NCBI RefSeq assembly: GCF_049969415.1
Contig: NZ_JBMFOX010000027.1
Coordinates: forward strand, 1-14,592
From: Candidatus Hadarchaeum sp.
Lineage (GTDB): Archaea > Hadarchaeota > Hadarchaeia > Hadarchaeales > Hadarchaeaceae
Length of the DNA: 14,592 nt
Direction of reading: 5' to 3'
This document shows positions 4,320 through 10,972 of this stretch, piece after piece (position 1 is the first letter of the stretch; the number at the start of each line of letters is the position of its first letter). The notes beneath the pieces were generated by a model. It saw nothing but the letters and a program-made list of their open reading frames with translations. It searched no databases and had not been told where the DNA came from. Made by a program: the position numbers and the translations under genes.

Positions 4320-4473
4320 TCAAACGAGGCCCTGATTGCATTTAAAGCTCTTCCGAGGTCACTTTCAGCTACCCGCTGCCAAGTTGTTTGAGCCGGTGAA
4401 AGGTCTAAAAATGATAAAGACTTAAAGAGGCAAAATCTCTAATCATTTTGTTTTTACTTCGGGAGAGGGTCAA

Positions 4474-6025
4474 ATGAAAACAAGGCCGGACGCAATAGTG
4501 GTGATTGATTTCGGGGGACAGTATGCCCACCTGATCGGCCGAAGGATCAGGGACTTTAACGTTTACTCGGAAATATTGCCCTGTGACGTGACCGCCGATG
4601 AGATTGAAGAACTGAGGAAAAAACTCAACCTCAAGGGAATAATACTCTCGGGCGGCCCATCCAGCGTTTACCGGGAGGGCAGCTTGGAAAAAATCCAGCA
4701 GCTCTTTGAACTCGGCCTGCCGGTACTGGGCATCTGCTACGGACACCAGCTCATCGCCCACGTTGCCGGCGGAAAGGTGAAACCCGCCGCGAAAAAGGAG
4801 TACGGGATAACCGTCGCCACCATCGACCGACCGCTGGGCGTTCTGCAGGGGTTGAAGAAAAGGGAAAGTGTGTGGATGAGCCACAGCGACACCGTCTACA
4901 GGCTTCCGCCGGATTACCTCGTCCTTGCCCATACAGAGAACTGCCCCGTGGCCGCCCTCAAGCACCGGGAAAAACCCATTTTCGGCCTGCAGTGGCATCC
5001 GGAGGTGACCCACACCGAAAGCGGCGAAAAGATGCTGCGCAACTTCATCTTTGAGATCTGCGGCTGCCAGCCCAACTGGGTGATGGGCGACTTCGTCAGG
5101 GGTGCTATCAGAGAGATAAGACAGGCGGCGGGAGGCAAAAAATGCATCATCGCCCTTAGCGGAGGGATCGACTCCAGCGTGGCCACCGCCCTGGCTGCCA
5201 GGGCCCTAGGAAAAAAGCTGACCGCGGTCTTCGTCGACCACGGCTTCATGAGGGAGGGCGAGCCTGAATTCGTCAGGAGAACCTTCGGGAAGATGGGGAT
5301 CAACTTCATCTCGGTGGCCGCCCGGGAGAGATTTTTACGCAGGTTGAGAGGAGTGACCGACCCCGAGGAAAAGAGGAAGATCGTCGGGGAGGAGTTCATC
5401 AAGGTCTTCGAGGAGGTTGCCAGAGAGGTCGGCGCCGAGTATCTCATCCAGGGCACCATCTATCCGGACAGGATCGAGTCGGGTTTTCGGAGGAGGTCTG
5501 AGAAGATAAAGACCCACCACAACGTCGGAGGGCTGCCCACCAAGATTGAGTTCAAGGGGATAATTGAGCCGCTCCGGGACCTCTACAAGGACGAGGTGCG
5601 CAAGGTCGCCGAGAGGCTGAAGCTGCCCTGGGAGATCATCCGCAGGCAGCCTTTCCCTGGCCCAGGACTGGCGGTGAGGATAACGGGGGGGGATCACTCC
5701 AGAAAAAATCAGGATCGTCAAGACCGCGGATAGGATCGTCAGGGAGGAGATTGAAAGGGCCGGGCTGAAGGACGGCCTTTGGCAGTACTTCGCCGTTCTG
5801 ACCGACACCAAGAGCACCGGAGTCAAGGGCGATGCCCGCGCCTATGGCTACACAGTTGCCGTAAGGGCCGTGCAGAGCCGGGAGGCGATGACGGCCAGCT
5901 TTGCCAAAATCCCGTATGAGGTACTGGAGAGAATTTCCACCAGGATAACCAACGAGAATCCCACCGTCACCCGGGTCGTCTACGACATCACCCACAAGCC
6001 GCCAGCCACCATCGAATGGGAGTAG
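4474..6025 (+). CDS. guaA: GMP synthase (glutamine-hydrolysing), fused GATase + ATPPase + dimerisation domains, interrupted by a frameshift at G8 (5685-5692)
   Basis: Motifs [45 protein letters not shown] and [10 protein letters not shown] in the first frame. The conserved C-terminus ([13 protein letters not shown]...WQYFAVL...[10 protein letters not shown]...[17 protein letters not shown]) continues from 5693 in the +1 frame to TAG 6023-6025. Confidence 0.93.
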
Positions 6026-8847: not shown

Positions 8848-8903
8848 GTTGGCGCTTCGGTGTTGATTTTTATCATTGAGGAAACACTTTAATGGTGTTC
8901 TTT

Positions 8904-9359
8904 TTGAGGCTCTGGACCATCAATCCGAAATATCTCGACGCCAAAGGGCTGCTGGCGCTGTGGAGGGAGGCGCTTCTTGCCCAAGAGGTCCTGCGGGGGA
9001 GGACCAAAGGCTGGAGAAACCACCCCCAGCTGGACAGGTTCAAGTCCCACCCGGATCCCGTCTCAGCCATCGGGTTTTACCTCTACTTCATTTACCTCGA
9101 GGGGAAAAGCCGAGGATACCGTTTCAACGAGGACAAAATTTATCGCCGGCCAAAATGTATCCCGGCGATAACCGTATCAAGGAAATGGTTAGCCGAGGAA
9201 CTAAAACAGCTGAAGAGAAAACTCAGGGAAAGGGACCGTAGCAGGTATCTGGCTCTTTTGAAAACAAGAAAAATCGAGCTTCATCCATTATTTCAGCTTT
9301 CGACACGGCGGCGAAAAAGTAAAGGCTCGACGATCGCTATTTTTGAACCTGAAAAATAA
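8904..9359 (+). CDS. Pyrimidine dimer DNA glycosylase / T4 endonuclease V-like family protein
   Basis: RLWTINPKYLDAKGLLALWREALLAQ, GWRNHPQLDRF, EGKSRGYRF and HPLF motifs. Family members begin MRLW, so TTG 8904 is preferred over ATG 8892. Confidence 0.8.
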   Translation: MRLWTINPKYLDAKGLLALWREALLAQEVLRGRTKGWRNHPQLDRFKSHPDPVSAIGFYLYFIYLEGKSRGYRFNEDKIYRRPKCIPAITVSRKWLAEELKQLKRKLRERDRSRYLALLKTRKIELHPLFQLSTRRRKSKGSTIAIFEPEK

Positions 9360-9367
9360 TTTATTCC

Positions 9368-9447
9368 GGCGGCGGAGACCAGCTAGCCCTGACTGCCGTT
9401 GGCCAACGCTATGGAGGACGGGCACACACTAACCGCCGCCTACATGA
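9368..9447 (+). ncRNA. Candidate box H/ACA pseudouridylation guide sRNA
   Basis: P1 GGCGGCGG/CCGCCGCC (9368-9375/9433-9440), internal-loop pocket, P2 GCCC/GGGC, K-turn (UGA 9390-9392 opposite GAG-GA-C 9414-9419), apical CGUU-GGCC-AACG hairpin and ACA at 9442-9444, 15 nt from the top of the 3' guide. Confidence 0.6.
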
Positions 9448-9489
9448 AATGGCAAGTTTTACAAAAAATTGCCGAATAATGGGGCCGAT

Positions 9490-10071
9490 TCACAGAGGCA
9501 ACAGTTTTCTTTTGTAAACTTCATTGAGGATTTCAGCGGCGGCTACATAAATCGCGCTTGCTCCGCAGAATATTCCCTCAACCCCGGCGATCATTTTCAC
9601 CACGATGACACCGCTGAGATCGGCGGCGGCTAGCAGGAAGAAGAGGATGACCAAGGTTAGAAAAACCAGTTGAAGGCCTTTTCCCAGCTTCAGCGTGCCA
9701 ACAAACATGACACTGCTAAAGACCCCCCACACAATCAGGTAGGCGGCCATTGACCTTGGGTCCACAGCGCCCGCCCAGCCCAAAGATGGAAAGACCAGAA
9801 GTGCAACTAAGGAAATCCAGAACATGCCATATGAAGTAAAGGCAACCATTCCGAAGGTATTTCCTTTTTTGAACTCCAATGCGCCAACAATCACCTGTGC
9901 TACGCCTCCGTAAAATAACCCCATTGCAAATATCACACCCATGCCGCTTGGGGGCATGATTCCAGCGTTAACCAAGTTGAGCAACACCGTCGTCATACCG
10001 AATGCCATCAAACCCAACGGGGCTGGATTGGCAGCTCCTTGAACCCTCGGGGTCCCGGCATCATGTGACAG
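9490..10071 (-). CDS. satP: Acetate uptake channel, SatP/AceTr (GPR1/FUN34/YaaH) family
   Basis: The family signature [15 protein letters not shown] lies upstream of the tracked start 10017. Also FYGGVAQ, GNTFG..AFTSYG.FW and [13 protein letters not shown] 10071 sits 6 nt after SD GGAGGTG (10078-10084), with an in-frame TGA two codons upstream. Confidence 0.9.
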
Positions 10072-10514: not shown

Positions 10515-10972
10515 GCGTTCGTTCCATTTCCGAGATCATGGAGGAGATGTTCCGGAAGTACCGGCAGAGGCCAGAACTTCAGAACCAATGGCGTTTTCTG
10601 GCGGGACGTGACGATCGCGGCTACAACGATTTTTTCATCTACGGCCCGGGCTTCGGGATTTGGCAGATAAAGGGCGAACTCAAGAATCCCTACGAGCTCA
10701 TCGGCGCCGGGGCGAGGATGGCCGCCCGAAAGATAGACGACGAGATAAGAGAGATTCTGGAGCAGGGTTCACCGCTCCCCTTCGGCTTCCTCTCCCCGCA
10801 CCCTAGGCTGAAGGACCGCGTCATCGTGGCCTCCGGAGTCGGTCGCTATCAGGAATCGATGGACGAACTCCGCGCCGCGCTGCCACAAAAACACCATCGG
10901 GTGGAGCGCGGATTGAGGCAAAGTCTCGAGGAGCTGCGCCGGAAACTTGATCTCGACAAGGCCTACCTGTAG
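10511..10972 (+). CDS. Hypothetical protein resembling a conserved euryarchaeal uncharacterised family
   Basis: ATG 10511 overlaps the acyP TGA (ATGA coupling). W..LAG.D..G..D.FI..P..GIWQIK...KNPYE..G.G.R..RKIDD recalls uncharacterised halo/methanoarchaeal proteins (from memory, unverified). Confidence 0.7.
   Translation: MSVRSISEIMEEMFRKYRQRPELQNQWRFLAGRDDRGYNDFFIYGPGFGIWQIKGELKNPYELIGAGARMAARKIDDEIREILEQGSPLPFGFLSPHPRLKDRVIVASGVGRYQESMDELRAALPQKHHRVERGLRQSLEELRRKLDLDKAYL

Follow-up and report, generated by a model that had tools for sequence, protein, structure and literature searches.

A conserved box H/ACA-type small RNA from an uncultured archaeal lineage, with U13 of tRNAs as candidate substrate

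The window analyzed here is a stretch of 14,592 nucleotides (nt) from Candidatus Hadarchaeum sp. and is contig C27 of an archaeal metagenome-assembled genome (G000; 1.47 Mb, 138 contigs, 95% completeness, 2% contamination). Positions 9368–9444 of its + strand very probably specify a single-hairpin archaeal box H/ACA guide small RNA (sRNA) of a family outside Rfam. The sequence predicts a kink-turn (K-turn) of the L7Ae type in the upper stem, to which L7Ae would be expected to bind. Judged from the complementarity of the two guide strands, the best-supported substrate candidate is uridine 13 (U13) of transfer RNAs (tRNAs) with a G10-U11-G12-U13 D-stem, a statement that, taken whole, we hold at an even chance. 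The element was compared with 65 genomes of the order, equal to the whole class; relatives are labeled G001, G002 and so on, their genera g1 (including G000), g2, g8 and g10, and the outgroup genome G065.

Conservation and architecture of the hairpin

With positions 9340–9480 of the window as the query against 40 relatives, blastn recovers the element in seven of them at E ≤ 1e-13. Alignment identity starts at the first G of the lower stem (P1) and stops at the ACA, and both flanks are unalignable. A covariance model built from eight sequences detects a single copy per genome in 15 of the 65, all from one family: five of the seven g1 relatives plus G000, four of 14 genomes in g8, one of three in g2, and all four in g10. 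A second model (R2), built from 15 sequences, adds four weak candidates (G019, G059, G035, and G010), for a total of 15–19 genomes. G019 and G059 have flanks in common and retain the P1, GCUGGCU, GGAC, GGAUG, and ACAC blocks; G035 and G010 are doubtful as homologues.

All structure statistics refer to an alignment of 15 sequences with 22 pairs. Standard pairs form in 91.1% of its cells, as against 22–57% when the partners are slid by 1–3 columns; compensatory changes occur in 10 of the 22 pairs, and the observed covariation score is reached by none of 500 column shuffles. An earlier note, made from this DNA alone, had read an archaeal Cbf5/L7Ae H/ACA architecture here; the covariation supports it, and the stems, K-turn, and ACA-type box that the note proposed to look for in relatives are homologous in 15 of the 65 genomes. 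RNAalifold returns the lower stem, a three-base-pair (3-bp) upper stem, the C-G pair closing the K-turn, and the apical stem, from a model-fitted alignment that makes this result not fully independent. Folded singly, the + strand has a minimum free energy (MFE) of −33.6 kcal/mol (z = −1.79; 11 of 200 shuffles as stable), the − strand has z = −0.78, and both strands reach about −34 kcal/mol. This fold is only mildly better than that of shuffles, so the case depends on the comparison with relatives.

From 5' to 3' the element consists of GGCGGCGG, AGACCAGC, UA, GCCC, UGA, a C-apical hairpin-G unit, GAG, GA, C, GGGC, ACA, CACUAA, CCGCCGCC, U, and ACA. Its parts are as follows.

9368–9375, + strand: 5' strand of the lower stem P1, GGCGGCGG, pairs with 9433–9440
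9376–9383, + strand: pocket strand carrying the 5' guide, AGACCAGC, with no pairs in the MFE structure
9384–9389, + strand: 5' strand of the upper (GA) stem, U9384 A9385 G9386 C9387 C9388 C9389, faces 9420–9426
9390–9392, + strand: non-bulged K-turn strand U-G-A, G9391 kept in 14 of 15 sequences and A9392 in all 15
9393–9413, + strand: K-turn C-stem and apical hairpin, closed by C9393-G9413, stem 9394–9400/9405–9411, loop GGCC
9414–9419, + strand: bulged K-turn strand, bulge G-A-G (9414–9416), then G9417-A9418 and C9419, conserved as described below
9420–9426, + strand: 3' strand of the upper stem, GGGC, then bulged A9424, C9425, and A9426
9427–9432, + strand: 3' guide strand of the pocket, CACUAA
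9433–9440, + strand: 3' strand of the lower stem P1, CCGCCGCC, pairs with 9368–9375
9442–9444, + strand: box ACA, one nt (U9441) past the lower stem

The coordinates in the earlier note are all correct, from the 8-bp stem 9368–9375/9433–9440 with U9441 and ACA 9442–9444 to the GCCC/GGGC stem, the K-turn, and C9393-G9413. The eight pairs of the lower stem form in 98.3% of cells in the 15 sequences, and five of them carry compensatory changes; in distant genera the stem is rewritten, for instance from GGCGGCGG/CCGCCGCC to GGGGCGA/UCGCCCC, with pairing retained. Both pocket strands stay open in the RNAalifold consensus as well as in the MFE and centroid structures. Within the 5' guide, A9381-G9382-C9383 is kept across genera and the distal part differs between genera, and within the 3' guide, Y-A-C (9427–9429) is kept in 15 of 15 sequences and position 9430 is U or C. 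The core of the upper stem is formed by GCCC (9386–9389) and GGGC (9420–9423). On the pocket side, U9384 and A9426 are able to pair in all 15 sequences, and 9385/9425 is an A.C mismatch in g1 and g8; the five g10/g2 sequences have G-C there in three cases, G-U in one (G016), and no pair in G061. Beyond it follow G-C, C-G, and pyrimidine-purine (Y-R) pairs, the Y-R pair being altered on both sides in six sequences. Position 9424 varies (A, C, or U), which fits a bulge.

The K-turn claimed in the earlier note stands, with its G-A pairs kept in 14 of the 15 homologues: the 5'-strand GA is found in 14, and the 3'-strand GA and a G-A-N bulge in all 15 (G9414, A9415, G9417, and A9418 invariant, 9416 variable). 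From the motif we infer that G9391 and A9392 face A9418 and G9417 as tandem sheared pairs. The closing pair C9393-G9413 is present in 15 of 15 sequences, and three of the eight pairs of the apical helix show compensatory changes. The apical core GUUGGCYAAC is almost invariant. The apical hairpin at 9397–9408, CGUUGGCCAACG, hardly varies from genus to genus; its loop of 4 nt reads GGCC, GGCU, or GGUC and, in 14 of the 15 sequences, is self-complementary. This conservation exceeds the needs of a spacer above the K-turn; a loop-loop contact or another binding partner is possible. The terminal box is ACA in 11 of 15 sequences, UCA in the four g10 genomes, and CCA in two weak g2 homologues, giving the consensus NCA. 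Variants of the NCA and CCA kind are described in Pyrobaculum (PMC4652768).

Productive archaeal guides are described as having 14–16 nt from the closing pair of the pocket to the ACA and 8–11, typically 10, layers to the second G-A pair (PMC4652768). If GCCC/GGGC alone formed the upper stem, the closing pair would lie 18 nt from the ACA with seven layers to the second G-A pair, which is outside this range. With U9384-A9426 as the pocket-closing pair, nine stacked layers and one bulged nt lead to the second G-A pair, the 3' single strand measures 6 nt, the lower stem 8 bp plus 1 nt, and the distance from A9426 to the ACA 15 nt; only in this arrangement does the spacing fall within the described limits. 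The geometry so predicted fits the canonical '10/6/9' archaeal H/ACA fold, the productive fold described by Toffano-Nioche et al. (PMC4652768). The U9384-A9426 extension yields the register of the earlier note, 15 nt before the ACA, and with it the guides 9376–9383 (AGACCAGC) and 9427–9432 (CACUAA).

Candidate substrates

By the pairing rules, these guides predict a target 5'-UUAGUG-U-N-GCUGGUCU-3'. Written as UUAGUG-UA-GCUGGUCU, this virtual target shows U8, R9, G10, Y11, R15, Y16, Y17, and G18-G19 in tRNA register. U13-A14 is found in 15 of 38 tRNAs of G000, and the G10-U11-G12-U13 D-stem in tRNA-Glu, tRNA-His, tRNA-Asp, an intron-bearing tRNA-Trp (contig C18), and a partial Glu-like match. 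The 3' guide pairs 5 bp with U8–G12 of these GUGU-stem tRNAs, and the 5' guide pairs with their D-loops as follows.

tRNA-His and tRNA-Trp: G15-C16-U17, bulged U17a, then G18-G19-U20-U (3 bp + 4 bp)
tRNA-Asp: G15-C16, a 1x2 loop, then GGUCU (5 bp)

When one bulge is allowed, U13 of tRNA-His, tied with that of tRNA-Trp, ranks first among the 1785 uridines of 40 tRNAs and the 16S and 23S ribosomal RNAs (rRNAs), and 6 of 400 shuffled guide pairs score as high. A genome motif scan for H/ACA hairpins, which gave 63 raw matches, mostly coding, and recovered the window element, offers an internal control. The scan contains one convincing K-loop H/ACA hairpin, on contig C15 (− strand 18138–18196; plus strand 10806–10864), with a 7-bp lower stem, ten layers to the G-A pairs, and 14 nt to the ACA. 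Its guides flank a U of the conserved 23S stretch GGAUGC-UA-UCUU with 5 + 4 bp; we take this stretch to be the pseudouridine region of E. coli 2604/2605. A guide with nine pairs thus finds a sensible rRNA site, placing a 9-bp match within the working range of the organism.

Guides and tRNAs were also compared in relatives, on incomplete tRNA sets. The 5' guide of g10 is (S)CCAAGC, and its complement GCUUGG is a D-loop with one more base before G18-G19. GCUUGG is the exact D-loop of an intron-bearing tRNA-Trp in three of the four g10 genomes (G016, G023, and G061; 6–7 contiguous bp), and the tRNA-Trp D-loop of G008 (g2) matches over 5 bp. In G004 the guide carries an A-to-G change, and this G lies opposite C20 of a GGCC D-loop tRNA. 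The G019 guides, UCCGGGC and CACCG, complement UGGUG-UA-GCCCGGA, the D-arm of its own tRNA-Asp, with 12 bp (11 Watson-Crick) around U13; a wobble-tolerant pattern finds three matches in this genome, one of them the tRNA-Asp, versus none for the control.

A tRNA-Trp(CCA) gene with a long intron was noted in G000 (C18, − strand, ~4340–4510; locus L091) and at loci L108, L111, L112, and L113. It is missed by ARAGORN and by the Rfam tRNA model. Its intron holds motifs resembling box C (UGAUGA) and box D (CUGA), identified by eye, presumably a parallel to Haloferax, and the tRNA-Trp of G000 and G008 has a second short insertion directly past the D-arm.

A number of observations weigh against U13 as the substrate. 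The 5' arm is weak, with 3 bp before the bulged U17a in tRNA-His and tRNA-Trp and 2 bp before the loop in tRNA-Asp, and no contiguous match of at least 10 bp exists in any tRNA or rRNA of G000. Genome-wide, 21 sites in 2.9 Mb, mostly coding, score at least as high as the tRNA sites, so the tRNA signal carries meaning only on the assumption of a stable RNA as substrate. In G060 no matching tRNA-Trp was seen, and in G014 a G of the 5' guide faces G19. The homologue in G019 is a weak model match (22 bits) with C for an A of the K-turn, and the guides of its sister G059 match tRNA-Asp at only 6/7 and 4/6 positions. In g10 a C of the 3' guide (the equivalent of 9430) stands opposite A9 of tRNA-Trp, a mismatch, and in g1 a U stands opposite G9; co-evolution would predict the opposite arrangement. 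There is no tRNA species with a canonical match in every genome. If tRNAs are the substrates, the guide must be tolerant and act on several of them. Finally, folding buries the D-arm of a tRNA, which would therefore need to be unfolded or nascent.

The exact target put forward in the earlier note, UAGUG-UN-GCUGGUCU, is not supported. It occurs in no tRNA or rRNA of the G000 assembly, where the tRNA model gives 45 matches, some on small foreign contigs. In five relatives the pattern RGTRTNGYTGGT stays at chance level, with 16 matches versus 33 for the reversed control, and the ten places that were fetched are coding or unrelated, none in a tRNA-like context. The note's wider inference, RNA-guided formation of pseudouridine 13 (Ψ13), keeps the tRNA-register complementarity and the absence of TruD on its side and has lost the exact target, with pairing imperfect in G000. 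Imperfect complementarity to U13 and one perfect case, the tRNA-Asp of G019, make Ψ13 the best candidate, still unproven. U35 of tRNA-Tyr was considered by analogy with Sulfolobales and set aside, since it would put the conserved C9429 opposite position 32, normally a pyrimidine. No tRNA-Tyr gene was recognized in the G000 assembly, and likewise no tRNA-Phe or tRNA-Asn.

The rRNAs provided several candidates, all of them rejected. In the operon on contig C19 (16S 13989–15466, 23S 15670–20342), scanned with 0–3 unpaired guide nt and at most one mismatch, the best site reaches 10 bp with a mismatch. A conserved 23S site, GGUGA-U-AGCUGGUU, fits both arms in the foreign 23S fragment C68; it was rejected because the position is C in the own 23S of G000, G001, G002, G003, G004, and G007. 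A pre-rRNA leader site, CUCUUGGUG-UG-GACU (G001, G016), has a weak 5' arm and no co-variation.

Contigs C41, C62, C68, C69, C73, C74, C80, C84, C85, C87, and C136 of G000 carry extra rRNA fragments and bacterial-type tRNA-Ile/Ala pairs. These short contigs look like pieces of foreign rRNA operons and can mislead target searches, as C68 did. The 23S gene of G000 (C19 15670–20342) is 4673 nt long against a model of 2987 positions, with an insertion of ~1.7 kb that is possibly one or more introns; the 23S of G060 is also long, at ~3.9 kb.

It is quite possible, if well below an even chance, that the RNA is a genuine H/ACA guide for something other than tRNA U13, be it a missing tRNA, a small RNA, a CRISPR RNA (crRNA), a pre-rRNA spacer, or a messenger RNA, or that it is an orphan guide. 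The structural evidence applies equally to such a guide, and no stable RNA of G000 contains an exact complement to both guides; this genome is 95% complete, and several expected tRNAs (Tyr, Phe, Asn) are missing from it. Several non-tRNA sites score higher than the tRNAs, for example C31(−)10262 in a 5' leader (6 + 6 bp), and crRNA-directed and multi-target H/ACA guides have been described (PMC11077068). The higher-scoring sites, however, are unconserved between relatives, the ten places have unrelated, mostly coding surroundings, and the pattern counts are no higher than those of the reversed control. Tested with their own guides, the rRNA stretches of G000, G001, G016, and G060 (with a 16S marker motif) and of G014 (23S and upstream only) share no common site, and the 23S site that fits is C in g1. 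The features of the tRNA register, moreover, persist through two guide variants, which is hard to explain otherwise.

A non-catalytic role is unlikely. The RNA would then be an H/ACA-shaped, L7Ae-binding antisense or chaperone for the D-arm of nascent tRNA, or a structural RNA with an apical-loop contact. As the earlier note cautioned, pairing could run on through U9384 and A9385 across A14 and U13 and leave no free uridine, and the 5' pocket is the perfect 8-bp complement (−15.3 kcal/mol) of the D-loop AGCUGGUC of an intron-bearing tRNA-Met(CAU) (C1 23232–23351), which has C13 and a D-stem unsuited to the 3' guide. Conservation of the apical GUUGGCYAAC goes beyond the needs of a plain stem, and the box is degenerate (UCA/CCA) in some genera. 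Against this, U9384-A9426 can pair in 15 of 15 sequences and four of the five g10/g2 sequences have G-C or G-U at 9385/9425, which argues for placing these bases in the upper stem rather than in an antisense stretch. The 15 nt to the ACA and ~10 layers are, as described for known guides, the geometry that places a uridine in the Cbf5 active site, and NCA boxes are tolerated in H/ACA-like guides (PMC4652768).

Locus, partner proteins, and the loss of TruD/Pus7

The element (77 nt) lies, as the earlier note had it, between two convergent genes, in a gap of 130 nt. The tRNA scan of the window gave no match, and the Rfam scan of the window none at gathering score; in a permissive scan of 9250–9560, the best weak Rfam match was SCARNA15, a eukaryotic H/ACA small Cajal body-specific RNA model (15.2 bits versus a threshold of 65, E = 1.9). 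The surrounding features are listed here.

8892–9359, + strand: ORF (open reading frame) for a Pyr_excise protein (pyrimidine-dimer glycosylase family)
9338–9347, + strand: TATA-like A/T box TATTTTTGAA, putative promoter, 21–30 nt 5' of the first base of the lower stem
9451–9473, no strand assigned: small hairpin GGCAA...TTGCC with T and A runs, 7 nt past the ACA, read in the sequence
9490–10017, − strand: ORF for a GPR1/FUN34/YaaH family protein

The TATA-like box overlaps the 3' end of the upstream ORF. An A/T-rich box of this kind is found in 15 of 15 homologous loci, about 22–32 nt upstream, and the remaining flank diverges; it is a putative archaeal promoter of the sRNA. The small hairpin lies in the stretch from the sRNA to the convergent gene's end and is a possible terminator for either or both; a T run of at least four lies within ~25 nt downstream of the ACA in 10 of 15 loci. 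A palindromic DNA element or bidirectional terminator hairpin in place of an RNA gene might be suspected from the position between convergent ORFs, the stability of both strands (about −34 kcal/mol), and the modest fold z-score, but it is very improbable, since the asymmetric motifs (GA/GA K-turn, ACA, pocket) are conserved only in the + strand reading, the pocket is conserved though unpaired, G-U pairs are strand-specific, and homologues keep the element and the upstream TATA-like box while their flanks diverge.

The proteins expected to partner an H/ACA sRNA, for which the earlier note proposed a check, are all encoded in G000: Cbf5 with DKCLD, TruB, and PUA domains, Nop10, Gar1, and two proteins of the L7Ae family. 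TruD/Pus7, the enzyme it also suggested looking for, is undetectable in G000 with the Pfam model (PF01142) or TIGR00094 at E ≤ 1, and PF01142 has no match in the 65 genomes of the class. The same search is positive in four archaeal control genomes (controls positive in 7 of 14). G065, the sole genome of the phylum outside the class, has TruD/Pus7 at E = 1.4e-93 and is the only TruD-positive one among 44 phylum genomes at least 85% complete; it has no match to model R2. With a single outgroup, and with most TruD-less genomes also lacking an sRNA match, this distribution carries little weight. That the sRNA is detected in only 15–19 of the 65 TruD-less genomes counts against guided Ψ13 as well: it is not a general substitute for Pus7 unless it has diverged beyond detection.

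The archaeal enzyme, aPus7, is described as making Ψ13 in S. islandicus and P. abyssi (PMC11077068, PMC2651775), and its loss as slowing growth in S. islandicus (PMC11077068). In Sulfolobales a defective aPus7 is reported to be compensated at U35 of tRNA-Tyr by an H/ACA small ribonucleoprotein (PMC2651775, PMC11077068), a precedent for takeover at another Pus7 site. No description of guide-dependent Ψ13 was found in the literature searched, which consisted mostly of titles and the openings of abstracts. That the class lost TruD/Pus7 and that at least one family handed Ψ13 of its His, Trp, Asp, and Glu tRNAs to one tolerant H/ACA guide ribonucleoprotein (RNP) is a tentative proposal, a little short of evenly balanced.

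Under this proposal, the sRNA would be transcribed from its own TATA-type promoter. L7Ae would bind the K-turn, and Cbf5-Nop10-Gar1 the lower stem together with the ACA. The pocket strands 9376–9383 and 9427–9432 would pair with the substrate, holding a uridine and its 3' neighbor unpaired in the Cbf5 active site. The likeliest substrates would be tRNAs or pre-tRNAs with a G10-U11-G12-U13 D-stem (His, Trp, Asp, Glu), in which the 3' guide would pair with nt 8–12 and the 5' guide with G15-Y16(-U17) and G18-G19-Y20-Y20a, leaving U13-A14 free. The outcome would be RNA-guided Ψ13 in a class without TruD/Pus7, made on unfolded or nascent tRNA.

To our knowledge, archaeal H/ACA guides come almost only from a few cultured genera and are mostly directed to rRNA. 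The sRNA of the window adds a well-supported new H/ACA family from an uncultured lineage. Were the tRNA assignment to hold, the tRNA D-arm would gain its first RNA-guided modification, and a Pus7 site would for the second time, and independently, have passed to a guide RNA. This would mean that a universal modification of the tRNA core, normally made by a dedicated protein, is transferable to the guide-RNA machinery, and that an H/ACA RNP is able to act on a segment buried in folded tRNA. It would also bear on enzyme replacement during genome reduction and on the timing of guide RNPs in tRNA maturation. The prediction is directly testable by standard reconstitution assays.

Comparison with known guides and enzymes

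Close architectural counterparts are the canonical Pyrococcus-type single-hairpin sRNAs, the Pab and Pf guides for rRNA ('10/6/9', '10/5/9'). As they are described, these share with the window element a lower stem of 8 bp plus 1 nt, a 6-nt 3' guide, ~10 layers to the sheared G-A pairs, a K-turn, and 15 nt to the ACA (PMC4652768). Unlike theirs, the two pocket-side layers here comprise a U-A pair and an A.C mismatch plus a bulged nt, and counting Watson-Crick pairs alone makes the upper stem seem short; an rRNA target was not found in the searches above, and the Rfam match is below gathering score.

Tolerance of different D-loops has a model in sR435 of S. islandicus, described as a multi-target H/ACA guide that acts mainly on rRNA and also on U38 of tRNA Pro(CGG) (PMC11077068). 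Both would be single H/ACA RNAs serving many sites, tRNA among them; sR435 is mainly an rRNA guide, and the bulge tolerance of the window sRNA is a proposal only.

The product expected here is that of TruD/aPus7, Ψ13 in tRNAs with G-U-G-U13-A-R. TruD/Pus7 is a protein-only system that recognizes a sequence and structure motif, in contrast to the guide-RNA pairing and catalysis by the TruB-family Cbf5 proposed for the window sRNA. The TruD of T. thermophilus reportedly acts on tRNA-Asp, tRNA-Glu, and tRNA-Gln (PMC12084886).

A close functional parallel is with Sso1 and sR115 (S. islandicus), described as tRNA-specific H/ACA sRNAs of Sulfolobales/Aeropyrum that guide Ψ35 in pre-tRNA-Tyr(GUA) (PMC2651775, PMC11077068). 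The window sRNA, known from sequence alone, has no sequence similarity to them. Its predicted site is U13 of the D-arm, theirs U35 of the anticodon loop, and it would probably serve several imperfectly paired tRNAs, whereas theirs is one well-matched pre-tRNA. In common they have the single-hairpin archaeal H/ACA form and a tRNA site, here predicted, that otherwise belongs to Pus7; that enzyme is described as defective in their hosts and is undetectable in the whole class that harbors the window sRNA.

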